Below are positions 746 to 23,251 of a stretch of DNA of 32,000 nt, piece after piece. Origin of the DNA: Candidatus Jordarchaeales archaeon (GTDB lineage: Archaea > Asgardarchaeota > Jordiarchaeia > Jordiarchaeales > Freyrarchaeaceae); NCBI GenBank assembly GCA_038889235.1, contig JAWAHN010000001.1, positions 554,499-586,498 of the forward strand. The letters are read 5' to 3'. Below the pieces are notes generated by a model that saw nothing but the letters and a program-made list of their open reading frames with translations, was not told the origin of the DNA and searched no databases. Every line of letters starts with the position of its first letter. Position 1 is the stretch's first letter. Made by a program: the position numbers and the translations under genes.

Positions 746-2026
746 TTATCCTTCGACGGCCTTTCTGGCAGTTTTACCGCGGCCGAGACGTTCGTGTGCC
801 TTGGCAAGGTGTCCTGCGGCTAAGGCGCCAATAAGTGAGACCTCGCCAGCTAGAGCTGCACTGCAGGCTATTTCTGCGAACTTTATGGCGAGCTGACCGG
901 GCTGCTTCAACTTCTTCAGGGTATCCATTCCGCAACCCATGATGGAAAGTGTTTCCTGGTATTGTGGGAGCCACATGCCCCCGCCTACCGCACCGCACAC
1001 CATTGATGGAAGCGTCAGTGAAACGTATAGGTCTCCGTTTTCCAAGAGCTCTGCGGTTACTATCCCCATGCTGCTTTCACCAATGTGTGCGGCGTCCTGT
1101 CCTGTGGCAAGCCACATTGCCGCAATAATGTTGGCGGTATGAGCGGTAAATCCTCCAAGTGTTGCGGCTTGCTCCGATCCTATGTAAAGTTTCCTGTATA
1201 CTACTTCAATGAAGTCTTCTGGCGTCGTCTTTAGTACTTCCTTAACATGCTCTCTCTTCAACACAGCCTCCGCTTGGACGGTCTTCCCCCGTCCGAGGAT
1301 GAAGTTGATGGCGGCTGGCTTCTTGTCTACGCACATGTTGCCCGAAAGGGCCACTGTCTTAGCCCACGGGAGCTGTTGCTCTATATAGTTGCATACTTTG
1401 TCGCAGGCGCTGGTGAGGGTGTTCATACCCATAGCGTCAAAGGTGTTTGCTACAAAGCGCAGGAACACGTTGCGCCCTACAATCCACGGTTGGATGTCAA
1501 CTAGCTTTATGAATGGGTCGTCTGTTTCAATGACCTTTTTTATCTCCTGGTAGTTTTGCTTCACCCATTCAACTAGTTTGACCGCATGCTCTAAATCTGG
1601 GACTTTTATGCAAGGGGCTCTTGTGATACCCGTTTTCAAAACTCTTGCCCTTGCCCCTCCGCTAACTGTTATTACACGGCAACCCCTATTCACGCTAGCC
1701 ACCAGAGCCCCTTCCGTCGTTGCAAGAGGAATGTAGTATTCTCCGTCTGCAACTTCGCCTTTAACCTTCAGTGGTCCCGCTATCCCCAACGGTACTTGTA
1801 TCACGCCTATCGGGTTTTCTATGTTCCTCGCAGCGGTTTCGTCGAGGTCTATGGAGTAACTTCCGACATGCTTCAAAGGTTTCCCTATAATCTTCTCCAA
1901 AGCCTTCCTTCTCACCCTGGCGGCGTCATCCACACTTCCCGTGTATTTTTCTACTTCGTGAAGTTTTATCTCGCCTCTGATCAGTTTTTCAACAAGTTCT
2001 TCTTCAGACAACTGCGAGGTGGTCAA
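746..2026 (-). CDS. hmgA: 3-hydroxy-3-methylglutaryl-CoA reductase, class I
   Basis: ENPIG, ATTEGALVAS (catalytic Glu), DAMGMN, GNMCVDKK (Lys), GQDAAH (Asp) and HLAKAHE (His) are all present. TTG start preceded by GGGTGA. Confidence 0.95.
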   Translation of the reverse strand: MTTSQLSEEELVEKLIRGEIKLHEVEKYTGSVDDAARVRRKALEKIIGKPLKHVGSYSIDLDETAARNIENPIGVIQVPLGIAGPLKVKGEVADGEYYIPLATTEGALVASVNRGCRVITVSGGARARVLKTGITRAPCIKVPDLEHAVKLVEWVKQNYQEIKKVIETDDPFIKLVDIQPWIVGRNVFLRFVANTFDAMGMNTLTSACDKVCNYIEQQLPWAKTVALSGNMCVDKKPAAINFILGRGKTVQAEAVLKREHVKEVLKTTPEDFIEVVYRKLYIGSEQAATLGGFTAHTANIIAAMWLATGQDAAHIGESSMGIVTAELLENGDLYVSLTLPSMVCGAVGGGMWLPQYQETLSIMGCGMDTLKKLKQPGQLAIKFAEIACSAALAGEVSLIGALAAGHLAKAHERLGRGKTARKAVEG

Positions 2027-2046
2027 CTATTTCACCCTCCTAAACC

Positions 2047-2469
2047 CTATTTTTTCCTTCTTTCAACTTCTACCACTCCTTTATGGGAGTCCACTCTAAC
2101 CCAGTCCCCAGTCCTAATACACTCTATCGGGTCTGGTGTCACACGATGAACAAGAGGAATACCCGCCACGACCGCTCCGACCAGTGTCACAGTGTCTGCC
2201 TTTCTTTGGACTATAGCCTTGGGAGCTAAGCCTTTCTCTGCAAGGTTTATGATGACATATGTCCCAACGGTTGAGCCAACACCCGTGGGGAAGACCAGCA
2301 CACGTCCAGTTACGCTTTCACCTTCAAGCGGATGGTTTTTGATGATACCTGTTTCTGGGTCAACATTTCCCAGGAAGGATATCGGGGACTGGGAGACGAG
2401 AGCCTCTCCCTCAGCTACAGGGGACTTTACTGCTTTTAGTCCAAAGCCTTTCAGGATTATTTTTTCCAT
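2047..2469 (-). CDS. Aconitase X swivel subunit = phosphomevalonate dehydratase small subunit (DUF126)
   Basis: ISFLGNVDPETG, GVGSTVGTY (catalytic Ser motif) and GIPLV. Likely start is MEKIIL at 2469, overlapping the large-subunit stop; context is a mevalonate operon. Confidence 0.9.
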   Translation of the reverse strand: MEKIILKGFGLKAVKSPVAEGEALVSQSPISFLGNVDPETGIIKNHPLEGESVTGRVLVFPTGVGSTVGTYVIINLAEKGLAPKAIVQRKADTVTLVGAVVAGIPLVHRVTPDPIECIRTGDWVRVDSHKGVVEVERRKK

Positions 2470-3638
2470 TTTGAACCCTCTAAAGCCACCTTCACGCACT
2501 CCTCAGTTGGCATGAGGAGTGCTTCCATGTTATTCATTGAGGGAGCGTAGTGTGCGGCTTTAGCTGAATCGGTTAGAAAACATTTAAAGCCCTTGAAGGG
2601 GGCAACTATGGGGCAGGTATCGCAAAAAACTTTGCCCCCGGCTTGTTCTATCTTCTGAACTAAGCCGAAGCGTTCCCCCAGAAGTTTAACTTGCCGGGAT
2701 GTGAAAACCCACAGTGGGATTTTAAGCTTTCTCCCCCCGACGAGCTCGGCCACTTTTTTCAACTCATAAATGGAGTAGTGAGGGCAGCCGACCATGACCA
2801 CTTCGGGCTCGCTTGTAGAGCCAAACGACTCAAAGACCTCGTCTAACGTTTTTCGATCTACCTCCACTTTTTCCAGCTTGTCACCCCCTTCTGCCTTCCC
2901 CCAATAGTAGAGTGCGACCGCCCCTGAAGCCGCTGCAGCGGAGGAAAGGTGCTTTGCTTCCACTAGAGGTATAGAGTGTTCGCTCTGGATTAACGGAATG
3001 GCGTCGCCAAAGTTTTTCCCGATGAAGTACCCTAGAGCGCCGTAGTGTGTTGGAGATTCTAGAGGTGCCGTGACCCTTACTTCTATTGTGGGTTTCCTGT
3101 TCTCGTCTAGGTGAAGGCCGTAGCGGGGGGTTTTCCCTGTTATAGCTGAGGCGAGTGCTGAGAGACTGCTTTCTCTGTTAGTGCGGGCGCCTAGGTACGA
3201 GTTTACGAAGGCTACGGCGGACGACTCGGCAAAAGCCACGTGTGAGCCCCTCGCTGGAAGGTTACCCAACTCGTAGGGAGTGCAGCTGCACGTCGCGAAG
3301 ATACCCATTCCGGCGTAAAGGTTGATTATTTCCCTTTGTTTCTCAAAGAAGGCTTTTTCGACACCCATTTCTCCCCATTTTTCGAGATCGACGCCCCCGG
3401 GGTTCAATGTAGTGAAGGACTGCACTTTGGCCCCTAGATAGGAGAACTTTTTAAGTGTCGTCAGGAGGGCGTCTCCTCCGGTCTTGTATGATACTCCCGA
3501 GACATGTGCACTATGAATTGGTATGAGGCGGTCTGCTTCGAAGAAGTCTCCTAAAGCGCAGAGTATCCTCATAGCTAAGCTTATAGCTTCGCCGTATTCT
3601 CCGTCGAACGCCTTTTCCTCTTCCTTAGTTAGATACAT
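2457..3638 (-). CDS. Aconitase X catalytic subunit = phosphomevalonate dehydratase large subunit (DUF521)
   Basis: MYLTKEEE start after GAGG. AHVSGVSYKTGG, TCSCTPY, AESSAVAFVNSYLGARTNRES, VGCPH and DTCPIV provide three Cys cluster ligands. Confidence 0.92.
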   Translation of the reverse strand: MYLTKEEEKAFDGEYGEAISLAMRILCALGDFFEADRLIPIHSAHVSGVSYKTGGDALLTTLKKFSYLGAKVQSFTTLNPGGVDLEKWGEMGVEKAFFEKQREIINLYAGMGIFATCSCTPYELGNLPARGSHVAFAESSAVAFVNSYLGARTNRESSLSALASAITGKTPRYGLHLDENRKPTIEVRVTAPLESPTHYGALGYFIGKNFGDAIPLIQSEHSIPLVEAKHLSSAAAASGAVALYYWGKAEGGDKLEKVEVDRKTLDEVFESFGSTSEPEVVMVGCPHYSIYELKKVAELVGGRKLKIPLWVFTSRQVKLLGERFGLVQKIEQAGGKVFCDTCPIVAPFKGFKCFLTDSAKAAHYAPSMNNMEALLMPTEECVKVALEGSKWKK

Positions 3639-4926
3639 AGTCCTCAACCTTTATCGACTCGTATCCGGGAATTCTTGCTGGTAGAAACTTCTCTCGAGGC
3701 TTGTCGAATGGTATTGTAGCGTCAACGCCAACTTTAGTGGTTTCGCGCGTTCTTTGGTCGGCTGAAGGGTCTAGGGAGGAGCCCTTACCTCGCATTATCA
3801 CAAGGTTCTTGGATGCTTGGAAGCGTGTGGCTATTGCGTACTCAACGGAGTAGGGGTCGTGAATGTCTATGTCTTCATCAACAACCACCACGTGCTTCAG
3901 AGATTTATGGGCTCTGAAAGCGGCCTCTATAGCCTTCACGCCGTCGTCTGGGTTCCTTTTTCTAATTTTAACAATGCAGTGGAGCCATGAGCAGCCTCCT
4001 GGACTCAGGAGCACGTCGAGACATTCACAGTGTTTGCTTACCTCCCTGTATATTGCTGGTTCCCTCGGAAGTCCCATGAGTAACTTGTGCTCCATACCTC
4101 CTGGAAGTATTGCTTGGTATACGGCGTCTTTCGCGTGAGTGAAGTGGCGTACTTCGACTACGGGTTGCTCTCTCACTATGTCATATGTCCCGGTTATGTC
4201 TGGGAAGGGGCCCTCTTCAACGAGCTCTTTTGTTATTCTTGCTTCCAAGAGGATCTCCGCGTCGGCTGGGACTTCTAGGTCGACCTTTTTGCATTTAACC
4301 AACTTCAGCGGGCTTAGGCTGTTAGCTATGGTGTACTCGTCTACGTCAGGGGAGAGAGATGTGGCTGCAGCCACGAGGACGGATGGAGGATTCCCTATCG
4401 TTATGGCTGCGTCAAGTTCTCCGCCAGCTCTTTTGAGATACAAGTCTAGGTCTCTTTCCTCGACGACCCTTATGGCGAAATGCCTTTCGTCAAGAAGCAT
4501 GAGTCTGTGAAAGCTTATGTTGCGCCCGTACTCCGGGTCGCGCACCGTGACCACGCCAGCAGTCACGTAGGGGCCACCATCCTTTTCTGCATGTGTGAGT
4601 ATAGGGAGGCGGGTTAAATCTACTGGTTCAACGACTTCCAGGCAGCGTCCACTATTTGTAACTTCTGGCTCGGTTGGATTATCCATGGCTTCTATGAGGC
4701 GTCGTATAAGTTTTTCAGGTGCAACCCCTAGGCTTCTAGCTATCAACTCTCTGCTCGAGAAAAGGTTTCCTGCCACCCTAAAGCTGCTTCCAGCCACGTT
4801 CTCGAAAAGGACGGGTTTACCATCGAGTTTCCTCAGTACCGCAGGAATTTCATGCTTGGTTGACACCTGCCTCTTAACCTTGACTAAGAGGCCGTTAGCG
4901 TCCAGCCACGACAGGAAGTCCCTCAT
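3625..4926 (-). CDS. UbiD-family (prenyl-FMN) decarboxylase, probably trans-anhydromevalonate 5-phosphate decarboxylase
   Basis: GGPYVTAG, NISFHRL, EEGPFPDITGTYD, GGCSWLH, KHVVVVDEDID and LDPS motifs. It lies immediately upstream of the aconitase X genes. An alternative GTG start is at 4950. Confidence 0.88.
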   Translation of the reverse strand: MRDFLSWLDANGLLVKVKRQVSTKHEIPAVLRKLDGKPVLFENVAGSSFRVAGNLFSSRELIARSLGVAPEKLIRRLIEAMDNPTEPEVTNSGRCLEVVEPVDLTRLPILTHAEKDGGPYVTAGVVTVRDPEYGRNISFHRLMLLDERHFAIRVVEERDLDLYLKRAGGELDAAITIGNPPSVLVAAATSLSPDVDEYTIANSLSPLKLVKCKKVDLEVPADAEILLEARITKELVEEGPFPDITGTYDIVREQPVVEVRHFTHAKDAVYQAILPGGMEHKLLMGLPREPAIYREVSKHCECLDVLLSPGGCSWLHCIVKIRKRNPDDGVKAIEAAFRAHKSLKHVVVVDEDIDIHDPYSVEYAIATRFQASKNLVIMRGKGSSLDPSADQRTRETTKVGVDATIPFDKPREKFLPARIPGYESIKVEDYVSN

Positions 4927-4943
4927 ACTTTTACCTTGAAGCT

Positions 4944-5366
4944 CTAACACTTCATTTTTGAAGCACCATTATTGTTTAGAACCGGCCTGAATTTGTAACC
5001 GTAGAATATGAGCCCGTCACGTCCGTCCTCTCTGATCTTCCTGATCACTGCTTCTACGTCCATGCCTAGGCTGAGGCCGTCTGGTTCCGCGTCAGTTATT
5101 TGCGCTGTTATGTGTGTCCCATCCTCAAGTTTTACAAGACCTACAATGTACGGGGCGTAAAACTCGAAGCCTTTCGGTGGAGTGCGTATGACTGTGTAGG
5201 TCACCAGCTTCCCCTTCGTTGGGAGCTTCTTCTTCTCCAGCTCCTTCGAGCCACATGACGTGCAAAGCTCTCTGGGGGGGAAGTATGTTATTAAGCACTT
5301 AGGACAGTAAGTGGCTTCGAGACGATACCTTTGAGGAATTTCCCTCCACAAATTTGACGGAAACAT
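4944..5366 (-). CDS. DUF35 Zn-ribbon/OB-fold scaffold protein of the thiolase/HMG-CoA synthase complex
   Basis: CPKC...FPPRELCTSC Zn ribbon plus OB fold (TYTVIR, APYIVGLVKL, YGYKFRP). GAGGTGA SD. Adjacent to thiolase and HMGS. Confidence 0.92.
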   Translation of the reverse strand: MFPSNLWREIPQRYRLEATYCPKCLITYFPPRELCTSCGSKELEKKKLPTKGKLVTYTVIRTPPKGFEFYAPYIVGLVKLEDGTHITAQITDAEPDGLSLGMDVEAVIRKIREDGRDGLIFYGYKFRPVLNNNGASKMKC

Positions 5367-5370
5367 ATCA

Positions 5371-6525
5371 TCACCTCGCTTTGAAAACGTGAACTACAGC
5401 AGATGTTCCAAAACCACTTGTGTTGTGTGTTACTCCTATGCGGGCATCTGGCACCTGCCTTTTTCCAGCTTCACCCCGCAATTGAAGAACTATTTCAGCA
5501 GCTTGATATATTCCGGTTGCCCCAACAGGGTGCCCGCGCGCCTTCAGCCCCCCGGAGGGGTTTATGGGTATTTCACCATCCAGGCTTATCAGTCCCTCCT
5601 CCACAATCTTCCAACCTTCACCTTTGCGCGCAAACCCAAGGTCCTCTATAGCTAAAATTCCAGCTATCGAGAAAGAGTCATGAACCTCTGCTACGTCCAC
5701 GTCTTCAGGAGTGATCTTAGCCATTTCGTAAGCCATCTTTGAAGCTTCGACAGTAGCCTTCAACGAGAGGAAGTCTTTGCGCGTATGGAAGAGGAAGGTG
5801 TCGTTAGCTTTCCACGCGCCGACTACGTCGACCGGGTCTGACGTGTACTCCTTCGCCCTGTCAGCAGAGCAGATGACAAGAGCGGCTGCGCCATCGCCTA
5901 CCGGGGCACAATCCATTAAGTGCAACGGCTCCGCAACGGGGATCGAGTTAAGAGCTTTTTCGACCGTGATCTTGAACGGAAGCTGAGCATACGGATTCTT
6001 TGAAGCGTTATCGTGCATTTGCACAACAAACTTAGCGAAGCTCTCCCTCGTAGCCCCAAATTTGTTCATATAGAGGCGCATGACCATGGCGTTTATTCCT
6101 GCAAGTGAGAGCCCTGTGAAGGCCTCGTACTCTTGGTCTGTGACCGTCGACAGTATAAAAGTCACATCGCTCGACGAGGCATCTACCATTTTCTCGACGC
6201 CGCCCACGAGGACGAAGTCGTATATTCCAGAAGCGACTGCTTCGAGCGCCATGAAGAGAGCTGCACCTCCGGAACTGCATCCTTCCTCCACCCTAAGCGA
6301 CGGCTTCGACTCTAGCCCTACAGCGTCAGCAAGCATAGGCGCGATGTTCTCCTGTTTGTTAAACTGGCCGGCGGACATGTTGCCGATGTAAAGCGCTTCC
6401 ACCTCAGGGTTCCCTGCATCCTCTAGAGCGCTTATAGCAGCTTTGGTGAACAGTGAGCGTAAGGACTCCTTCCAGTGGTGGTCAACTTTAACCATACCAA
6501 CTCCTATTACGGAAACTTTGCGCAT
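5371..6525 (-). CDS. Acetyl-CoA acetyltransferase (archaeal acetoacetyl-CoA thiolase)
   Basis: VEEGCSSGGAA (nucleophile Cys), AEVHDSF, NPSGGLKARGHPVGATG and GVTHN. GAGGGGTG SD. Confidence 0.93.
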   Translation of the reverse strand: MRKVSVIGVGMVKVDHHWKESLRSLFTKAAISALEDAGNPEVEALYIGNMSAGQFNKQENIAPMLADAVGLESKPSLRVEEGCSSGGAALFMALEAVASGIYDFVLVGGVEKMVDASSSDVTFILSTVTDQEYEAFTGLSLAGINAMVMRLYMNKFGATRESFAKFVVQMHDNASKNPYAQLPFKITVEKALNSIPVAEPLHLMDCAPVGDGAAALVICSADRAKEYTSDPVDVVGAWKANDTFLFHTRKDFLSLKATVEASKMAYEMAKITPEDVDVAEVHDSFSIAGILAIEDLGFARKGEGWKIVEEGLISLDGEIPINPSGGLKARGHPVGATGIYQAAEIVLQLRGEAGKRQVPDARIGVTHNTSGFGTSAVVHVFKAR

Positions 6526-6538
6526 ATGGACACCCCTC

Positions 6539-7615
6539 CTATTTGGCTTCCAAACCTATAATCATTCTGCGCCACTTGACGTAACAGGCATAGTCGATGT
6601 AGCGCTTCCTGTTAATATAGTCCCATACCTTGGGGGCTGCCTCCTTCTTCTCCTCAATGCCATCCTGGACAACTATGTACATAGCATCACTACCAGCACC
6701 AGAACCATACGAAACCAGTAGGATTTGTTGTCCAGGCTTTGCTTCATCCAACACTGCAGCTAATCCTAGGAGAGAGGAGGCAGAGTACGTGTTCCCGATG
6801 TAAGGAACTAGAAGGCCCTTCGTGACTTGCTCCTTGGTGAAGCCTAGCTGGCTTGCCGCCCTCAAGGGAAACTTACCGTTAGGCTGGTGGAATATAACAT
6901 AATCAAAGTCACTTGGTTTAAGTCCAAGCTCGCTCATGAGATGCTCAGCAGCTGAAGTTATGTGGTGGAAGTAAGATAATCCGGTGAAGGGACCACCGTG
7001 CTTGGGGTAAGGCTGCTCAGCTCTTCTCCAAAAGTCCGGAGTATCTGTAACATACGACACTGTAGCCTCTATGGACGCAGCCGAGGAAGAGCTCAATGGC
7101 CCTATTACTAGAGCTGCCGCCCCGGCAGCAGCAGCGTACTCTAGGTCGTCTCCGGGTGCGCTCTGTGCTACATCAGCTCCTATGGCTAAGCCGTACTTTA
7201 TCATCCCCGAAGCAACCAGCGCTATGCACATCTGGACGGCTTCAGTGCCAGCTTTACACGCGAACTCCAGATCTGCTGCGAGAGTGAAAGGAGTCGCACC
7301 TATCACCTCGGCGACTGTGCATCCTGTAGGCTTCACCGCGTAGGGGTGCGATTCTGAGCCGCAGAGCACGGCTCCTATATCCGACGGGTTTATGTTCGCC
7401 CTCTTAACGGCGTTTGTTGCTGCCTCGATGGAAAGTGTTATGGTGTCCTCGTCAGGGCCTGCGACTGCCTTTTCCCATACCATTAAGTCTTCTTTGAAGC
7501 GGTCGGCTGGGGCACCCCAAACTACCGCTATATCCTCTGTCTTGATCCTGTACTGGGGGATGTAGCACCCCCACCCTTCTATTCCGACACGCGATTTAGG
7601 AATCATCATTTGCAC
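6539..7615 (-). CDS. mvaS: Hydroxymethylglutaryl-CoA synthase (archaeal type)
   Basis: [21 protein letters not shown] (catalytic Cys), [21 protein letters not shown] and [18 protein letters not shown]; start is 7615 (GTG) or 7609. Confidence 0.95.
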
Positions 7616-7912
7616 TTAACCCCTCCGTGGCTTACGGGGAGCTCTGGTGCCTCAAAAGGAGAACTGGGTACTCGGAGGACTAAGGCATCTTTTAGGAGAG
7701 TTGCAGACCGGAAATGTATATTTAAGCGTTACGCACCAATGTACTACAACTTCGACAAATTTAAGGATTTTTCCGCATAAATGTAAAAATGCAGATGTTT
7801 TCGTTCTTCTCTCGCCTGAAACAAGACGAGCATGCTACGAATAACGTTATTGCACAAACGTCCATTTTTCACTTCTTAGTTCTAAAAGTGACGAAGCAGC
7901 AATTTTACTGGA

Positions 7913-7928
7913 AGAAATTATTTAAAAA
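7913..7928 (+). promoter_or_regulatory. Candidate BRE/TATA promoter for the prenyl synthase gene
   Basis: The sequence gaagaaaTTATTTAAAA is a purine run followed by a TATA-like box, about 55 nt before the TTG start. Confidence 0.4.
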
Positions 7929-7977
7929 GGAGTGTTGGATTTCGGAGCCTAACGAATGCGATGTGCGAGGGGAAAAA

Positions 7978-9042
7978 TTGAGCTTCGAGGAGATCGTTTC
8001 AAGGCATCTTGAAAGAATTAATGCTGCAATTGACAGCTTTCTCGACACGAAGATAAGCCATGCTTTTACTCCATACCACGCCGAGTACTACTCGAACATA
8101 AAGGAGTTCATCATGAGGGGAGGTAAAAGGCTTAGACCAGTGTCCCTGGTTAACGCATATTTTGGGGTCGGCGGAAAAAACAGAGGAGACATATATAAGG
8201 CTTCGATTGCTGTGGAATTGCTGCACAATGCAACCCTTATACACGACGACTTAATAGATCACGACGAAACGCGTAGAGGGAAAGAGACATTTCACGTCAA
8301 GTACAGGAACTGGTACAATGAGCACTTTAAAGGGGAACGGGGTGAAGACTTTGGAATGACGATGGCCATTCTTGGAGGTAACACTGTTTACAACTTAGGT
8401 GTGGAAGCTTTGCTTGAATCCGGGTTTTCTGCGGAGCTTGTCTGCAGGGCAGTGGATAGGTATCAGAGAGTTTTCGAGGAAATAATAGAGGGTGTAATGT
8501 ATGAGATGATTCTTTCGTTTAAAGACCATGTGAAGCTTGACGAGTACATGAAGATGATAAAGATGAAGACCGCTGCCTTACTTGAAGCGTCCGTTGAAAT
8601 AGGGGCCATACTAGGCGGGGGAAGTGAGGAACAGATAAAGTCATTGAAAGAATACTCCGTGCTTGTTGGGCAAGCTTTCCAGATACAGGACGACATACTG
8701 GGGACATTTGGTAAGGAGGAAGAGACTGGGAAGCCTACAGACGGGGACATAAAAGAGGGTAAGAAAACTGCTTTAGTGGTCTATGCGTTGGAATCCGCTG
8801 GGCCCATGGAGCTGAACATGCTTAGAAGCGTGCTCGGAAAAAGGAATGCCACTCCAAAAGAGGTGGAGAGCGTTAGGAGGATATTCTTAGAAACAGGGGC
8901 ACTTGAAAAAGCGCGTGAAAAAGCAATCAAACTTAAGGAAGAAGCAAAGGAGAAGATTAAAAGTATGAAGCCCCCCCTCACCAGGGAGGCTGAAGAGTAC
9001 TTCCTCAAACTAGCCGACTTCGTAGTTGAAAGAATATACTAG
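7978..9042 (+). CDS. idsA: trans-Isoprenyl diphosphate synthase (GGPP/GFPP/polyprenyl synthase family)
   Basis: GGKRLRP, FARM LIHDDLIDHDETRRG, KTAAL, SARM FQIQDDILG and GDIKEGKKT. Likely start is TTG 7978 behind GAGGGG. Confidence 0.92.
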   Translation: MSFEEIVSRHLERINAAIDSFLDTKISHAFTPYHAEYYSNIKEFIMRGGKRLRPVSLVNAYFGVGGKNRGDIYKASIAVELLHNATLIHDDLIDHDETRRGKETFHVKYRNWYNEHFKGERGEDFGMTMAILGGNTVYNLGVEALLESGFSAELVCRAVDRYQRVFEEIIEGVMYEMILSFKDHVKLDEYMKMIKMKTAALLEASVEIGAILGGGSEEQIKSLKEYSVLVGQAFQIQDDILGTFGKEEETGKPTDGDIKEGKKTALVVYALESAGPMELNMLRSVLGKRNATPKEVESVRRIFLETGALEKAREKAIKLKEEAKEKIKSMKPPLTREAEEYFLKLADFVVERIY

Positions 9043-9141: not shown

Positions 9142-10068
9142 ATGCTCGTAGACCGCTTTGGGCGACAGGTCAGCAACCTTAGGATTTCTCTTACCCAGAA
9201 ATGCAATCTGGCATGTTTTTACTGTCACCATGAGGGAGAGGGGTGTAGTGGTGGACTGCGCGAACAAGACAGCATGACGCCAGACGAGGTGGCGTTCATA
9301 GTTGGAGCTGCAGCGGAGCTGGGTGTGCGGAGCGTTAAATTGACGGGGGGAGAGCCTCTTCTGTACGATGGGGTTGAGGAAGTTGTCAGGAAGATATCAT
9401 CAGTTAAGGGTGTAGTTGACGTATCAATGACTACCAACGGCGTGCTTTTATCTGAGTGGGCTGAGAGGTTAGCTAGAGCTGGGCTGAGTAGGGTTAATGT
9501 GAGCTTAGACACTCTTTCAAGGGAAAAATACAAGATGATAACGGGGAGAGACGACTTCGAGAAGGTTATAGAAGGAATAGATGCGGCCCTCGATGTAGGT
9601 TTAACTCCAGTTAAGCTGAATATGGTTCTACTGAAGGGGGTCAACGTGTCAGAGTTGGAGTCGATGATCGAGTTTGTGAGGGGGAGAGAAGGGTGTGTGC
9701 TGCAGGTTATAGAGCTTGTCCCTAGAATCCCGGCGCTCGAAAAATACCACATTAGCCCATTATTTGTTGAAGAGATGCTTGAACGGAGGGCGGTTAGAGT
9801 CGTCGTAAGGGGGATGCATAGAAGGAAAAAATTCTTCTTAGAAGGAGGGGGGGAGGTTGAAGTAGTCAGGCCCGTTCACAACAGCGAGTTTTGCGCTAAC
9901 TGCAATAGGTTGAGAGTTACAAGCGACGGGAAGCTGAAGCCTTGCCTGATGCGCAACGATAACTTGGTCGACGTTCTCACCCCTATAAGAAGGGGAGCTT
10001 CGAAGGAGGAAGTTAAACGGCTCTTGCTTGAAGCCGTGAGCAGGCGCACCCCCTACTACCGTTGCTAG
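9142..10068 (+). CDS. moaA: GTP 3',8-cyclase (molybdenum/tungsten cofactor biosynthesis radical SAM enzyme)
   Basis: LRISLTQKCNLACFYCHHEG (CxxxCxxC), LTGGEPL, NVSLDTL and C-terminal CANCNRLRVTSDGKLKPC (second cluster). GAGGGG SD. Confidence 0.95.
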   Translation: MLVDRFGRQVSNLRISLTQKCNLACFYCHHEGEGCSGGLREQDSMTPDEVAFIVGAAAELGVRSVKLTGGEPLLYDGVEEVVRKISSVKGVVDVSMTTNGVLLSEWAERLARAGLSRVNVSLDTLSREKYKMITGRDDFEKVIEGIDAALDVGLTPVKLNMVLLKGVNVSELESMIEFVRGREGCVLQVIELVPRIPALEKYHISPLFVEEMLERRAVRVVVRGMHRRKKFFLEGGGEVEVVRPVHNSEFCANCNRLRVTSDGKLKPCLMRNDNLVDVLTPIRRGASKEEVKRLLLEAVSRRTPYYRC

Positions 10069-11174
10069 AAGAGTTCGATTATGTCTGCAACCTTTATATC
10101 CGCCTTCTTTCTTCTAGCACTACCCTCTAGCATTAGCTCACACATCGGACAAGAGGTTATAACTAGACTTGCACCGGTGGTTAAGGCTTCTTCCAGCCTC
10201 CTATCAGCGATCTTGGCGGCAAGTCCAGGGTGCGATAGCGGTACCCCACCTCCACCGCCGCAGCAAAGGGTTTTCAGCTTATTGTGTTTCATTTCAACTA
10301 GGATCGCGCCCGCGGCGTTCCCAATTATTGAGCGTGGCTCGTCGACTATCCTCGAATACCTGGCGAGGTGGCATGGATCATGAAATGTCACATATGCACT
10401 TAGCCTGCGTGGGGACAACTTTCCAGTTTCAACGCTTCTCGCAAGAACCTGTGTTATGTGTTCTACCTCAAAGTCAAAATCGAAAAACTTCGGGTACTCT
10501 TTCGAGAGGGTTTCGTGGCATCCTGGGCAAGGTGTTATAATGCGCTTTACCCCAGCTTCCCTAAGTCTCTTAATGACTAACTTACCGTAATCAATGAACT
10601 TTTCCACTTGCCCCGAAACGAGGAGTATGTTCCCACAGCAGGGTTCATCTGGCCCAAGCCACCCTACGTTTCCAAGCCTCGAAACTACTTCCCCCATTTT
10701 GGCCACTCTTTCTGGGAAGTACTGGGCGTAACTACAGCCAACAAAGAGTATAGTTTCACCGCCTTTCGGGAGTGCAACAGACTTGCGGAGGAGCTTTGAG
10801 TAAGGGTTGCCGAAGCTAAGCACCATGTCCGCCGCTTTCTTGTGTTCTGGGTCTAAGTAGCCTAGGCGCACCAGTTCCGACCTGAGAGCAATGATGACGT
10901 CGACGGTTTGTAGGGCACATCTATACATGCAGTAACCGCACGTAGTGCAAGCTGTAGCGGACTTCAGAAGGCTTTCACTAGGCCTGATGACACCTTCGAT
11001 GAGCCCCCTAGCAGCTAGCATCTTCCCCCTACTAGAATAGGGCTCTAACCTTAGCTCTTTAAAGAAGGGGCACTCTTCAACGCAGTGGCCGCCACTTTGG
11101 GTTTAGAAGTGGCTGTAGCCGCACCTCGTCCTGTTACAAGTGTAAATGTCTGGGATGTATTTCTCAAGGTGCAA
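10065..11174 (-). CDS. Fe-S oxidoreductase subunit (GlcF/HdrD-like: 2x[4Fe-4S] plus two CCG domains); two-exon model 11174-11115 + 11084-10065, 359 aa
   Basis: TTG at 11174 sits 7 nt after GAGGTG. Exon 1 reads MHLEKYIPDIYTCNRTRCGY and exon 2 continues CVEECPFFKELRLEPYSSRGKMLAARG. The second motif is CTTCGYCMYRC; CCG domains are EPCCGN..PCPGC and HDPCH..LCCGGGGG..SCPMC. The ORF-track start at 11021 lacks the first cluster motif. Confidence 0.85.
11085..11114 (-). other. Putative 30-nt bulge-helix-bulge (tRNA-endonuclease-type) intron in a protein-coding gene
   Basis: Minus strand reads GGUGC-GGCU-AC^A-GCCACUU-cuaaaccca-AAGUGGC-GGCC-AC^U-GCGUU: outer helix, 4-bp central helix, two 3-nt bulges and a 7-bp inner hairpin. 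An in-frame UAA lies in the loop. Excision at the canonical positions restores the Cys motif. Confidence 0.8.
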
Positions 11175-11178
11175 TCGC

Positions 11179-12645
11179 TCACACCTCGGGTGTTTCTCTT
11201 ATCCACTTTGAAACGAACTTTTTCCCGGGGTTGAGGATGTTCTTCGGGTCAAACACACGCTTCAGCTCCAACATATACTCGAAAGATTTCCCATGCTCAT
11301 ACTTGTTAAAGCCGCCAAGCCGCTCCCCGTCCCCTATGTACGTGCTCATGGTTCCTTCAAGGTCTACAGCCATCTTGCTCATTTCAGCAACATACTTGTA
11401 GAAGCGACGTACTTCGTCGGGGTTTCCATCGTCCACGAATACCGCGAAGCTTATGCTTGGACTAGCCCTGTTAGGCCTCTGATGGTAGATGCACATCCCC
11501 AGAACCTCTAGGCCATTTTTAGCTGCGATCTCGAGGTACTTTCTGTACGCCTCCTCTATTCGTCCTAGCGGTATTCCCAGGTCTGCGGCGCCGAACTTTT
11601 TCACTCTTTGACTGTCAGGCCACTTCTGCTTGAATGGTTCAAACTCGAGAAGGTGCTTGCTTGTCCACCAGCTTTCGACGAGCTCCCTCTCCTTAACAAT
11701 AACACCGCCCGCGCTTTCAACAATCTTCAAAGCATAGTTCCTTGAGAACTCGGCGACCTCCTTATCTCCACTGAAGGAGAAGAATAATATTGCTTCAGCC
11801 CATTCCGGTATTTCGGGCGTCTTACCATACTTCTGCCGGTATGCATGAGTATAAAATTGAAGTCTCTTCTTGCAGTTGATGTGCGCGCTCTCCACGCTCA
11901 ACCCCGCCTGGACCATCCTCTCAAGAGCTAAGACGGCAGAGGACAACGACCTAAAAACCGCCGCCTCGACCACTCTGGTTTCGGGCTTCGCGAAAACTCT
12001 AAGGGTGGCTTCCGTTATTATTCCGAGTGTTCCCTCCGCTCCAACCATAAGCCAATGCAACTTGTAACCGGTGGAGGAACAAGCAGCCTTTCGGTGGCCA
12101 AGTCTTACTACTTCCCCTTTACCGTCGACTATGACGACGTTGAGCAGGTAGTCGGCGGGTTTACCATACCTTATTCCAAAGGTGCCATCATTATCGCACG
12201 CTATAGCAGCCCCAACAGTTGAAACAGGCTTGCTTTCTGGGTCGTGCGGCCACCAGAGATTATATTTCGCCAGCTCATCGTTCAATGCAGCAATTGTAAT
12301 TCCAGCTTGAACGGTCACCGTCATGTTCTCCTTGTCTATCTCTAGGATTTTGTTAAGCCCGCGTGTATCTATAAGAATGCAATCTTCGACGGGAACCGCG
12401 CCGCCTCCCATGCCTGTTCCACCGCCGAAGGGGACCACTGGAATGCCGTGCTCATAAGCTACGCGTACAGTCTCAGCCACTTCCTCAGTGCTCGTTGGCC
12501 TCACGACTATAGCGGGGAGAGAGTAATCGCTGGCTGGGCGAGGCGACCAATCCCTACTATATGTAAACATTACAAAGTCCTCTGTGAAGACTTTGTCTTT
12601 CCCTAGTCTTTCTTTCAGTTCTTCTACTATTGAGTTGTTCATCAT
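11179..12645 (-). CDS. FAD-linked oxidoreductase (GlcD/D-2-hydroxyacid dehydrogenase superfamily), substrate unknown
   Basis: PAIVVRP, VVPFGGGTGMGGG, TVQAGI, WPHDPES..STVGAAIA, GAEGTLGIITEATLR and VFDPKNILNPGK. Start is ATG 12645 or 12642. The stop is 4 nt from the Fe-S gene start. Confidence 0.88.
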   Translation of the reverse strand: MMNNSIVEELKERLGKDKVFTEDFVMFTYSRDWSPRPASDYSLPAIVVRPTSTEEVAETVRVAYEHGIPVVPFGGGTGMGGGAVPVEDCILIDTRGLNKILEIDKENMTVTVQAGITIAALNDELAKYNLWWPHDPESKPVSTVGAAIACDNDGTFGIRYGKPADYLLNVVIVDGKGEVVRLGHRKAACSSTGYKLHWLMVGAEGTLGIITEATLRVFAKPETRVVEAAVFRSLSSAVLALERMVQAGLSVESAHINCKKRLQFYTHAYRQKYGKTPEIPEWAEAILFFSFSGDKEVAEFSRNYALKIVESAGGVIVKERELVESWWTSKHLLEFEPFKQKWPDSQRVKKFGAADLGIPLGRIEEAYRKYLEIAAKNGLEVLGMCIYHQRPNRASPSISFAVFVDDGNPDEVRRFYKYVAEMSKMAVDLEGTMSTYIGDGERLGGFNKYEHGKSFEYMLELKRVFDPKNILNPGKKFVSKWIRETPEV

Positions 12646-12794
12646 TCCACCACGTCGATGCAGCTTCACAGGCCGCCCGTTTAATTACTCTTACATGTAG
12701 AAATTTTTATTACTTTAGCGTCTGAAATAGTGCTTCAGAAAGACGTTTTGGTGACGGAGCTAGGCGGCCCATTTTTGTTTGAAAGGGGTGTTCT

Positions 12795-16964: not shown

Positions 16965-18312
16965 CAGAAATAGCCTCCATAATTTTTTTCATGACGAAAA
17001 AGTGGTTTAAAAATGTGTCAGAGTTCATGCGGGGGATTTTCATTCCCCTGTCTATCGCTTCCCACTCTTCTAGGAAGCGTTTGAGCTGCTTGCGTCTCAT
17101 TTCAGGGATAATTTCGACGAGTAAATCTATTACCTTGTTAACGTCGTACTCTTTGAGCTTAAACCTCTTCACCACGTGTCTCTTCATTCTTCTGTAGAGC
17201 AGTTTTAGTGCGTAGCTGTACTGCTTGCCCTCTTTATACAATCTGAGTTTCTCGGCGAGTAAGGTTTTCCCCCTTTTGAGGTAAACTGCTGTTGGACCCA
17301 TCTCTTTCGGTTTACCTCTCGGTAGCCACTTCCAGACGGAGAAAACTATGATGATGGGGTATATTGGAGCCAGAAGCCAGTTGGCGCTAGCCCAGTTGAT
17401 GTAGCCGATGATGCTGCCAAAAAGTTTGTCGTAGGAGTACGCTGTGGTTAAGTGTGCTTCGTCAAAAATGACCAGATTGCCCCCACTGCCCGTATCTTTC
17501 TTCGAAAGCCAGTTGATGACGTTAATTATGAAACGGGCATTATCGCCTCTCACTATCATGTCGTTGGTAAAAATGCTGGGGTCGCTTATTAGGACTATCC
17601 TACCTTTGCCAACTGCCTGTCCTCCGATGATAATTTTTTCGAGGTCGTAGGCGGCAACTACCACGGCGGGTTCTATTAAGAGGTCAGGATTTAGCGGTTC
17701 GATCTGCATGTTCTTATTGAGGTCGAGGAGGCCGATTGGTAGTGCCGCAACTTGGTTTTCAGGTGGTATGTTCCAGAGGGCCGTTGGGAAATTAAGTAGC
17801 AGGTTGTTCACACCTCTAAAAATCGGGTGCGAGGTGTTGAACACGTTAACGGTTGGGGCTGGAGTCCAAGTGGTTAATCCCCCTGTAGCGCTTCCGTAAA
17901 GAGGGGTATTGCAAAATAGTGGCGGAGGGAGACCTAATAGCGTGAAAAGTAGTACAGTGAAGAAGTTTCCAGTCCCGAAGTCGTCTGCGATGAGCAACCC
18001 ACCGCCCTTGCGGACAAAGTCCGCGAGCTCTAAAACCTCTATGGGGTGGGCGAGCGAGGAAGGAGCCAATATTACCATCGTGGATCCTTCGGTTCTACTC
18101 AGGACGCTGAGCGAGGAAAGGAGGGGGCGTACGTCATACCCGTTCCTGCTAAGCTCTACTCTAAACAAGAGGCAACCATTCCACGTCGGATTGTAAAGAG
18201 AGAAGTCTTGTAACTTCACATTCTGGGCGTGTCCAGGTATAACTGACAACACGAGTGGCGCCCACACCACTATGAACACGCATATGTAGACAATTGTTCT
18301 CAATTTAGCCAA
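16948..18312 (-). CDS. DUF4350-domain secreted/membrane-anchored protein
   Basis: N-terminal signal/TM, NPTWNGC, GGGLLIADDFG, GRIVLISDPSIFTNDMI, VIFDEAH, a second TM, then a basic helical tail. Overlaps both neighbours. Confidence 0.8.
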   Translation of the reverse strand: MAKLRTIVYICVFIVVWAPLVLSVIPGHAQNVKLQDFSLYNPTWNGCLLFRVELSRNGYDVRPLLSSLSVLSRTEGSTMVILAPSSLAHPIEVLELADFVRKGGGLLIADDFGTGNFFTVLLFTLLGLPPPLFCNTPLYGSATGGLTTWTPAPTVNVFNTSHPIFRGVNNLLLNFPTALWNIPPENQVAALPIGLLDLNKNMQIEPLNPDLLIEPAVVVAAYDLEKIIIGGQAVGKGRIVLISDPSIFTNDMIVRGDNARFIINVINWLSKKDTGSGGNLVIFDEAHLTTAYSYDKLFGSIIGYINWASANWLLAPIYPIIIVFSVWKWLPRGKPKEMGPTAVYLKRGKTLLAEKLRLYKEGKQYSYALKLLYRRMKRHVVKRFKLKEYDVNKVIDLLVEIIPEMRRKQLKRFLEEWEAIDRGMKIPRMNSDTFLNHFFVMKKIMEAISVGKRA

Positions 18313-21300
18313 TCAACACACTCCCCGTGACTTCCTTGTATATTTCGTTAAGTGTTTTCAAGGCTTCTTTGTAGTCGGAGTCTGTGACTGCGTGTCTGCT
18401 AAAGCGAGCCTTCTCGAATAGCTGCGTAATCGTGTTGGCTAGCTTGGGTGGTAGGCCGCTCTTCACCGCTTTCTTAGCCACATCGCGCGCCGTCTCATTG
18501 GGGAGCCGCTCTACTTTTAAGTAGACATTAAGGAGTTCCATGTACATCTTGTAAATCCGCATCACGGCTTCCCTGTAGTTACCTGCTTTAGCCAACTCGT
18601 CGAGTGCTTCAAGATTCCACGAGAGAACAGGCTTTTTAGCGCTGGCCGCCTTACCCTGTGAAACATACACGTAAAGTAGGATGATGAGTAGGAGGGACAA
18701 CACTCCCAGGATTACAAGCGGCAGTATTAGGGATGAAGAGTCAACTTGGAGAGCATTAAGTAGAACCAAAATATAACCTCCTGTTAATTCTTCTCTTAAG
18801 AGCAGAATTTCAATATATGCCTGGTTTCCAGTGTCGGCTGTAACATACAATTTAATGTATCCCTCAGAGGCGGTGTCAGGCACTTTAAACGTGAAGACAC
18901 CATTACCACTCTCGTCCGTTCTAAACGATCCTATGAGTGACATGTTCCAGTAGACGGTGAAATTGCGTCCAACTAACGGGTTGCCGTTAGGGTCACGTGC
19001 ATTAACGCTAATCGTTAAAGGCTTTCCGATAAAAGCTCGCGTAGGAACACGCGCTTCTATTGTTGCGTTATTAAAAACGTGGACTTTGACTTCGAACCGA
19101 GCTGGGCCAAACGTCTCGTTTCCAGGATATTCCACTACTAACATTGAAACTTGGTTCAATGGAAGAGAGGAGAGGTCCTCTGGTTCCAGTATGATGTTGA
19201 GATAACCGTTGTTATCCGTGGTGTTGCTTGAAAGAGCTAAGCCGTTATAGTACGCTGTGAAGTTTAATCCTCCGAGCGGTTCCCGTGATGCAGAGTCGAC
19301 GACACGGGCGATTATGAACGCACGTTCCCCCGGCATAAAGGAGCCTATTAAGTTAGAAGTCTGCTTGCTAATGGTTAGAGTTGAAACACTTGAATAGAAG
19401 AATGACAAAATTGTCACAGATGGTTTGACCTTCACTTGAACACTTACAATGTTGCTAACTCCACTAAACGTATCGTTGAGACTGACGGCGTGCACATCAT
19501 AGACTCCTGGGGCGATGTCTCTGGGGGTGGGTACGCTGCAGTTGAAGAAGCCGTTGTCATCAGTCCCCTTGCTTGCATTGTAGGAGTACGTGTAGCTAGC
19601 GTTAGAAAGCTTAAACTGAAGCGTTATATTTGCCGCGGGATTGCCGTATTCATCTGTGACGAATCCGCTGAACCACGCGGCTTCCCCTCTATAGACCTCC
19701 GCTGAGTAACTATTTATGAATATCAGTCCCCTGTTGTAGACCAGTATTCTTACGGTTACAGACTGTGACGGTAATATTCTTCCACCGGAATCTATTGTTC
19801 CTCCGAAATACGCGTAGGCATCATAGTATCCTGCTGACGGCACATTTACAGTAACGTTACAGATGTAGTTGCCATCTCCCGCGTACGTCGTAGCATACTC
19901 GTTTCCATTCCAGTTCACGTAAACATTTGCCATGTCTTCTATAGGTGACCCGCTTTCACTGTCTAACGATAGGTGTACCGTGAAGGAGAGCGATGTTCCA
20001 TTCTTAACGGCATTAGGCGGATTGAGCGCTAAGGTTATGTAGGATTGAGCGTAGACTTTGATTGACGCGGTGGGGGATTGGGCGGTTCCGAAGATTCCTT
20101 GGTACACTACTTGGAAGGTGTAGTCGGCTAGCGCTAATTCCGCGCTATTTGGGTAGGAATATTCGAAGTGGCCGGCATAATCAGTTGTATTAGTTGAAAC
20201 GGTTGAACCATTCATAAGTATCTGGATCTGCGTGAAGGGTATGCCTTTCACGGTTCCATTATAGTTTGGGTCGTACAACGTGCCGTTCACTTTGACTGTT
20301 CCCTTGCCTCGTATGAGAGTAGTGTAGTCTGTGTCTAGTGCCGGCTTTGTCGACTTCACCGTGGCATTTATGGATACAGTGTCGTTTAACACTATTTTTG
20401 CGGTGTAGTTGTAAGCTACTAACAGGCTTGAGCCTTCTGAGGAGTGTACTTTCGCGATAACCGTTAAGTTCCCCACCTTTACTTCTCTGCCAACCACTAT
20501 CTGAATAGTTACGCTGCCACTGCTTGTCGTCCCGCTCCCTTTATAATACTGTTGTTTCTCCCACGGATCGTAAACGTATATGCCCACTAAGAGGCCGTTT
20601 TGAGGGGTCATGTCTTTAGTCACCGCGACAGTCACATCGAACGGGTTTTCTCTCATCACAACGGGTGGAGCATATATTGAGACGTTAAAATTAGTGTGCT
20701 GAACGTTCGGGTCACTTCTTGGAAGCCGCTCCCACCACAGCAACCCCTCACTGAGCGCTATGACTGGTGGTAGTGGTTCAGGTGTTGGGTCAAAGGAAAC
20801 CCAGTATCCTTCATCGTCACTTGTCGGTATCCAGACTTCAGCCCAGGCGTGCACCAAAAAGCTATTTGCGATGTGGACCACATTGCCGTTAACCGTGCTA
20901 TTCACCGTAAGGTATCCTACGACCAGCCTTGCAGGTATGCCGAGGCTGCGCAGAGCCATTACGAAGGTTGATGCAAAGAGAACTGGCGTACCCGTCTTGT
21001 TTGTCAGAAGCCATAGTACTGGGTCACCATTAACTTGTCCTCCGTTCAAGAGAAGCGAGAAGTCGTAGATGTACTCACCAGAGGTAAGCCTATTAAGCAC
21101 GTTCAGCGCGGTTTCATATGCATTGGTTCCGTTCTCCACGGATCTCACAAAGCTTGTGAAGACTTCATTTGACTGGAGATCAGAGGGGATCTGCAGGTAC
21201 AAGTCAACTATTTCTTGCGGTATCCTAACTTCGGATGGCGATTTAGCGATGCTTCTTATAGTCGTTATGTTCAAGTTGTACGTCGCTACAGTGTAGCGGA

Positions 21301-22999: not shown

Positions 23000-23251
23000 C
23001 GAAAACTCCCGCCACAAGGAAAGTTCAAGAGAAGAGCTTTAACTCTCTTTAAATAAGATTTATGGAAAAACCATTCATCATAGAAGATGATTAAAGTTAA
23101 GAGTAGATCATCGATTCCTTTTTCATGATAGAAAAGATGATTTTGGAAACGCTTCGTGTGAGAGTGAGTTTAGACAAAATTGGCTAACGAGTTAATTTTT
23201 TATGATAAGAATTTTTGCTAGAAGATTGGGGAGCGAGTACCTAGTTAGAGG

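Follow-up and report, generated by a model that had tools for sequence, protein, structure and literature searches.

At the beginning of a gene for an iron–sulphur (Fe-S) protein in an Asgard archaeon, a short insert carrying a stop codon breaks the reading frame, and this locus raises the question of whether the insert is an intron that is removed from the mRNA by the enzymes of tRNA splicing. The host belongs to the class Jordarchaeia, close relatives of which are named Freyarchaeota in NCBI records, and its genome comprises 2.14 Mb at 95% completeness. The stretch of DNA analysed (in the following, the window) is 32,000 nt long. An earlier note, prepared from the letters of the window, had proposed a motif of the bulge-helix-bulge (BHB) type at the insert, excision by the archaeal splicing endonuclease EndA, and restoration of a cluster-binding motif. 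Judging from comparisons with related genomes, we regard the insert as a real feature and, very probably, as an EndA/RtcB-spliced mRNA intron of the class known from cbf5.

The Interrupted Gene and Its Genomic Context

The Fe-S gene is the second cistron of a two-gene GlcD/GlcF-like operon. It is preceded by a gene for an FAD-linked oxidase, whose match to the NCBIfam glcD model is below the curated cut-off and whose TGA stop (11181-11179) is separated by 4 nt from the downstream TTG of the Fe-S gene. The relevant features of the window are the following:

11179..12669, minus strand: FAD-linked oxidase, GlcD-like, 496 aa, with the Pfam domains FAD_binding_4 and FAD-oxidase_C
11182..11187, minus strand: Shine-Dalgarno-like GAGGTG, 7 nt upstream of the TTG, with a presumed role in ribosome binding
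11115..11174, minus strand: exon 1, consisting of the TTG start (11174-11172) and 19 codons, ending ...CNRTRCGY
11079..11125, minus strand: hBHBh' motif, obtained as the centroid fold of this 47-mer
11085..11114, minus strand: predicted intron, 30 nt, phase 0, between a Tyr and a Cys codon
11103..11105, minus strand: in-frame TAA in the intron loop, limiting the unspliced ORF to 23 aa
10065..11084, minus strand: exon 2, 339 codons plus stop, encoding CVEECP, the second Cys motif (CTTCGYCMYRC) and two CCG domains
9142-10068: MoaA-like radical-SAM gene, convergent on the Fe-S gene

Read from the TTG, the frame yields MHLEKYIPDIYTCNRTRCGY, then ten odd codons including the TAA, and then CVEECPFFKELRLEPYSSRGK-M and the 318-aa ORF. 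Gene callers set the start of the gene at ATG 11021, giving 318 aa, and the 21 codons 5' of this ATG (region A of the selection analysis) are conserved as protein. The TTG start is invariant in the six sequences of alignment A1, and genus g2 has a GTG in its place. Both the TTG and the Shine-Dalgarno-like GAGGTG at 11187-11182 are present as the earlier note had read them, and so is the in-frame TAA (11105-11103) that ends the unspliced ORF after 23 aa.

The predicted spliced product is a CCG-domain Fe-S protein of 359 aa, in which the first cluster motif reads CNRTRCGYCVEECP; the predicted tryptic peptide across the splice junction is CGYCVEECPFFK. In the read-through product, the Pfam domain CCG matches in two stretches (E=4e-29), and Fer4_8 and Fer4_17 score slightly over their cut-offs, with an N-terminal 4Fe-4S dicluster domain. 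An equivalog-level match to GlcF, TfrB, GlpC or LdhH was not found, all NCBIfam scores being below the curated cut-offs, with TfrB scoring best (165 vs 385 bits). By these sequence matches, the protein is to be seen as only a distant relative of TfrB, GlcF, GlpC and HdrD.

On the contigs of relatives, the order of FAD oxidase, Fe-S gene, convergent MoaA-like radical-SAM gene and polyprenyl synthase is maintained. On one of these contigs (L009), the FAD-oxidase gene is seemingly split, which is due to a run of N in the scaffold and not to an intron. The polyprenyl synthase belongs to an isoprenoid gene cluster that spans positions 746-9042 of the window and the gene set of which we take to be similar to that of the archaeal-type mevalonate pathway:

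746-2026: HMG-CoA reductase
2047-3647: aconitase-X, small and large subunits
3625-4950: UbiD-like decarboxylase
7789-9042: polyprenyl synthase

The window further contains an ORF of 1570 aa at 18305-23017 (minus strand).

The Bulge-Helix-Bulge Motif

The archaeal splicing endonuclease EndA cuts after the second base of each bulge of its BHB substrate. On each strand of this substrate, the order from 5' to 3' of helix, central helix, bulge and helix is canonical for the introns of pre-tRNAs (37/38 intron). The minus strand from 11125 to 11079 reads GGUGC GGCU ACA GCCACUU cuaaaccca AAGUGGC GGCC ACU GCGUU. In this arrangement, an outer helix of 5 bp (two Watson-Crick and three G-U pairs) is followed by a 4-bp central helix (GGCU/GGCC) with one 3-nt bulge per strand (ACA and ACU), and by an inner stem of 7 bp closed by a loop of 9 nt. 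This is the hBHBh' geometry that had been proposed for the locus, and the centroid fold of the 47-mer agrees with it exactly. Upon folding within a context of 151 nt, the inner stem is retained together with the 5' bulge and the central helix, while in the minimum-free-energy structure the weak outer helix with its three G-U pairs is swapped for another pairing. Application of the cleavage rule to the motif excises 11114-11085 and joins 11115 to 11084, thus reproducing the splice sites and the 30-nt length given in the earlier note.

Taken alone, neither the motif nor its folding energy is rarer than expected by chance. The folding z-score of the 47-mer is -0.56, and when the genome was scanned loosely for BHB motifs, 2716 canonical hits stood against 2744 decoys of mirror geometry; among forms equally good as the one described here (inner stem >=7 bp, outer helix >=5 bp, length <=45 nt), there were 10 hits vs 5 decoys. 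The case for an intron rests on comparison. What exceeds chance is the combination of a gapless junction that restores a conserved protein motif, the sharing of the insert position by nine distinct sequences, and covariation within the structure.

Distribution of the Insert among Relatives

The insert was surveyed across the whole class, comprising 11 genomes, of which five make up family f1 (genera g1 and g2) and six make up its sister family f2. It is present at the identical codon boundary in all five f1 genomes as well as in further metagenome contigs, and absent from all six genomes of f2, one of which (G005) is complete. Besides the window, eight further distinct syntenic sequences carry the insert at the same spot. 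Altogether, eight distinct insert variants of 27, 28 or 30 nt occur, with those of 28 nt (L009/L014 and L015) being frame-shifting, so that only excision restores the frame in these lineages. The sequences stem from independent assemblies (Logan, JGI, ENA, NCBI, and four GTDB genomes besides the window's own).

The f2 gene is flanked by the same neighbours as the f1 gene and is, thus, its positional orthologue. Insert-free homologues, which comprise those of the f2 family as well as proteins bearing the labels Jordarchaeaceae, Baldrarchaeia, Helarchaeota and Thermoproteota, read ...DIYTCNR[TS]RCG[YF]C-xxx-CP... and align with the spliced product without a gap. The motif CNRTRCGYC...CP, which the earlier note had expected to be restored by splicing, is thereby matched, and its expectation that orthologues would read CNRTRCG[YF]C without an insert is borne out in f2 and in the distant homologues with the slightly wider pattern CNR[TS]RCG[YF]C. 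Since both the syntenic gene of the sister family and the more distant homologues are without the intron, these sequences point to a single gain in the ancestor of family f1 as the most likely origin. A repeated mobile element as the source of the intron was considered and rejected, because the intron is present in a single copy; a blastn-short search of the genome for a second copy found only the intron itself.

Conservation of Structure and the Stop Codon in the Loop

For the nine distinct BHB regions, aligned with MAFFT (alignment A2), the RNAalifold consensus is identical to the proposed hBHBh' structure. Standard pairs are formed in 97.2% of the cells of this structure, vs 37-61% after displacement of the 3' partners by 1-3 columns, and none of 500 shuffles equalled the observed pairing or covariation score. 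The central helix is paired to 100%. The same applies to the outer helix, even though it lies within codons; it has changed on one side only, as in AGG->AGA and TGC->TGT. The inner stem is paired to 93.7%, with three pairs changed on both sides and one position taking A-U, G-C, C-G and U-A. All of these figures overstate independence, since the nine sequences are kin. In one sequence (L008), the inner stem requires a one-base bulge, as judged from the sequence.

A stop codon is kept in all nine sequences, either TAA or TGA, at columns 21-23 of alignment A2 and in the frame of exon 1; the neighbouring loop bases vary around it. The conserved stop could serve as a fail-safe for unspliced mRNA or be part of a loop motif. 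In this genome's cbf5 intron, which is described below, no internal stop is present; hence, a loop stop is no general rule.

Selection, Gene Annotation and Competing Explanations

In all nine sequences, the spliced coding sequence is open, is 359 aa long and contains no other lesions. Both exons are under purifying selection. The whole-CDS dN/dS is about 0.01-0.13 where computable, and differences in exon 1 between relatives are mostly synonymous. Across the junction and upstream of the annotated ATG (codons 2-41), pS is 0.5-1.0 and thus near saturation, at a pN of 0.01-0.09, which indicates that purifying selection is strong.

Public gene calls for the Fe-S gene in this family, in all cases examined, are wrong. 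The closest database proteins all have 318 aa, with the exception of one of 379 aa labelled Freyarchaeota, and close homologues bear the labels Freyarchaeota and Jordarchaeaceae; on relatives' contigs, a gap of ~155 nt precedes the called start of the Fe-S gene. Like the calls of 318 aa, those of 327 aa in genus g2 and of 287 aa for the window's own gene are truncated. The 379-aa “(Fe-S)-binding protein” (L009:2501-3640, GCA_018383835.1, P0004) is a chimera, the first ~40 residues of which come from the end of the upstream gene, exon 1 and the 28-nt intron, all read out of frame, followed by exon 2. This annotation is explained by the frame shift that the 28-nt insert causes.

These gene calls bear on an alternative to splicing, according to which the insert is never removed and the functional product is the 318-aa protein from ATG 11021, devoid of the first Cys motif. 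Exon 1 would then give rise to a 23-aa leader peptide or to nothing, and the hairpin between the cistrons could be an element that affects translation or stability. Such an arrangement would be in line with the 318-aa calls of close relatives, with the purine-rich AGGGGGAAG ahead of ATG 11021, and with the outcome of database searches, in which the spliced form was not seen in DNA or protein. In JGI metagenome contigs, the DNA pattern of the spliced junction gave one match (L031) and no spliced form; the match was discarded as uninformative, being an unrelated small ferredoxin with a chance CGYCVEECP. Among short proteins (<202 aa) covering residues 1-70, which would include cDNA-derived fragments, nothing scored, and a full-length protein search returned no spliced form of 359 aa; both are weak negatives. 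The purine-rich stretch, however, encodes the conserved residues SRGK and is, thus, explained by protein constraint. The strong purifying selection just described acts on the 41 codons upstream of ATG 11021 in a frame that requires excision, no in-frame start is found between the stop and CVEECP, and insert-free orthologues encode the same residues contiguously. The evidence from selection and start codons argues strongly against the 318-aa protein as the main product, and we deem a permanently retained insert improbable.

Translation might also cross the insert without any splicing of RNA, by read-through, selenocysteine incorporation or bypassing, for which it could be said that six of the eight distinct variants have an insert length divisible by three, with a single in-frame stop located in the hairpin loop. 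Yet two lineages have the frame-shifting 28-nt inserts, and with lengths of 27, 28 or 30 nt read-through cannot explain the inserts. Both TAA and TGA occur as the stop, which means that neither Sec nor Pyl can account for all sequences; at the amino-acid level, the ten inserted codons show no conservation, and they would disrupt the CG[YF]C spacing of every homologue; and the Tyr codon that bypassing would require is missing at the landing site. Recoding is, hence, barely conceivable. An equally slight probability is given to a decaying pseudogene or a sequencing or assembly artefact. The in-frame stop 23 codons into the gene is what one would expect of a pseudogene, but the interruption recurs at one site in nine distinct sequences that were assembled independently, and elevated dN/dS or further lesions, which the earlier note had named as signs of decay, are not observed in any of the nine 359-aa coding sequences. 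The pseudogene or artefact reading is effectively refuted.

Splicing Enzymes and Further Inserts in the Genome

The genome encodes the RNA ligase RtcB (599.9 bits) and two EndA paralogues:

L001:1192-1782, plus strand: EndA paralogue 1, 196 aa, above the Pfam cut-off
L002:1474-2061, minus strand: EndA paralogue 2, 195 aa, above the Pfam cut-off

The two paralogues are 33% identical, and where the first has the His of its DHAP motif, the alignment shows EVAK in the second. The second EndA being devoid of the aligned catalytic His suggests an (alpha-beta)2 heterotetramer as in Crenarchaeota. With ARAGORN, only 14 tRNA genes were detected, ten of them with an intron, and most tRNA genes are probably too interrupted for detection. 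The low count fits the heavily interrupted tRNA genes described for the lineage (PMC11291895).

Two further protein-coding genes of this genome are interrupted by short inserts. The cbf5 gene (G000:C1:835691-836673; L023:1440-1560) is split into two frames by a BHB-like insert of 29 nt at the catalytic TLDP motif, and when the cleavage rule is applied to it, GTLDP is recovered around the catalytic Asp. This insert is a relaxed form of the motif, since its outer helix is weak. About 150 nt downstream of cbf5, the rpl44e gene (eL42; G000:C1:836828-837084; L032:1585-1675) is likewise split by a BHB insert of 29 nt, comprising a central helix of 4 bp (GCCU/GGGU), the bulges AAU and AAA and a 5-bp stem, the excision of which gives GSQPKPVQ. 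Elsewhere in the genome (G000:C2:123999-124160), an Alba-domain match was noted that covers only model positions 12-65 within an open frame of 84 aa.

For a genome-wide view, a scan for strict BHB motifs was combined with a filter for the joining of ORFs and with a coding score based on hexamers, decoys of mirror geometry serving as the control. At threshold 4, the scan returned 26 hits vs 20 decoys, which is no usable enrichment, and a relaxed scan at its strictest threshold returned 222 vs 194 and was dominated by fusions across normal gene boundaries. Neither the cbf5 nor the rpl44e insert is among the hits of these scans. Well-formed strict motifs (inner stem >=6 bp, outer helix >=5 bp, length <=45 nt) number 28, of which 25 were inspected, three further copies of one tandem repeat being omitted; among these 25, only the motif of the Fe-S gene joins two coding stretches. 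Since introns are inseparable from gene-boundary fusions without homology data, these scans yield no intron count. The wider mRNA-splicing system envisaged in the earlier note is supported in part, by the short BHB inserts in cbf5 and rpl44e.

Proposed Mechanism

Taken together, the preferred reading implicates the following course of events. The pre-mRNA would fold into the strict hBHBh' structure 60 nt after the start codon, whereupon, as we infer, EndA, probably as an (alpha-beta)2 enzyme, would cut after the second base of both 3-nt bulges, and RtcB would ligate the exons and probably circularise the 30-nt intron. The mature mRNA would encode the 359-aa protein with its complete first cluster motif, while ribosomes on unspliced mRNA would halt at the TAA of the loop after 23 codons.

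A more far-reaching proposal is that splicing acts as a control point and that this Asgard family depends on tRNA-splicing enzymes for many protein genes. In such a scheme, the BHB would lie in the second cistron of a translationally coupled operon; an arriving ribosome would unwind it and stop at the TAA/TGA kept in the nine variants, so that the competition between EndA/RtcB splicing and translation would set the amount of Fe-S subunit made per FAD subunit. We consider this proposal speculative and rather unlikely; if true, it would mean protein-only mRNA splicing in the lineage closest to eukaryotes.

Relation to Known Systems

The closest counterpart is the BHB intron in the cbf5 pre-mRNA of Crenarchaeota, known from Desulfurococcales and Sulfolobales (Watanabe et al. 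2002; Yokobori et al. 2009, PMC2738675). Like the insert in the Fe-S gene, it is short, located inside coding sequence and flanked by a BHB, and its excision restores a conserved protein; its hosts possess a two-subunit splicing endonuclease, as is suggested for the present one, and its presence or absence follows lineages. In contrast, cbf5 encodes an RNA-modification enzyme in Crenarchaeota, whereas the gene concerned here encodes a metabolic Fe-S oxidoreductase subunit in an Asgard archaeon. Moreover, cbf5 introns frequently have a relaxed cleavage motif (PMC2738675), while that of the Fe-S gene is a strict hBHBh'. Splicing of cbf5 has been shown experimentally; that of the Fe-S gene is predicted from sequences.

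Apart from tRNA and rRNA, the archaeal splicing endonuclease also acts on a further mRNA, as is proposed for the Fe-S gene, namely the HVO_1309 mRNA of Haloferax volcanii, which contains a BHB intron in its 5' UTR (Schwarz et al. 2020, PMC7714728). This intron, shown in vivo and in vitro, resides in an untranslated leader and, unlike that of the Fe-S gene, interrupts no codons. According to that study, cbf5 was the sole other mRNA case known (PMC7714728). For the lineage itself, two reports describe abundant, often multiple and non-canonical tRNA introns in Freyarchaeia and Atabeyarchaeia (Valentin-Alvarado et al. 2024, PMC11291895; bioRxiv 10.64898/2026.10.13.758758), which share the lineage, the BHB/EndA chemistry and similar lengths with the intron proposed for the Fe-S gene. 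In the passages retrieved by term, both sources deal with tRNA introns only and describe no intron of a protein-coding gene, and the words “mRNA” and “cbf5” are absent from the 2026 preprint. Within the literature searched, BHB introns were not reported for any protein-coding gene of Asgard archaea, coding-sequence BHB introns have been described for cbf5 only, and the Fe-S gene would add a new gene and a new phylum.

In eukaryotes, HAC1/XBP1 splicing proceeds by IRE1 cleavage and joining by tRNA ligase or RtcB (PMC4090602). It resembles the process proposed here in being protein-only and spliceosome-independent, in excising a short intron at stem-loops of an mRNA that encodes protein, in its ligation by a tRNA ligase, and in altering the protein that is made. 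However, its nuclease is IRE1 and not EndA/TSEN, and it is regulated by stress; the relation is one of functional analogy and not of membership.

Significance

A family-wide strict BHB intron in an ordinary metabolic gene would mean that the tRNA-splicing machinery is used for mRNA beyond Crenarchaeota. Taken with the two inserts that this genome has in cbf5 and rpl44e, it suggests that mRNA BHB introns are routine in this lineage. Genes of this kind would be overlooked or misinterpreted in metabolic reconstructions from metagenome-assembled Asgard genomes. If mRNA is spliced by proteins alone in the closest prokaryotic kin of eukaryotes, this would, furthermore, be relevant to how HAC1/XBP1-type splicing, and interrupted genes generally, arose.
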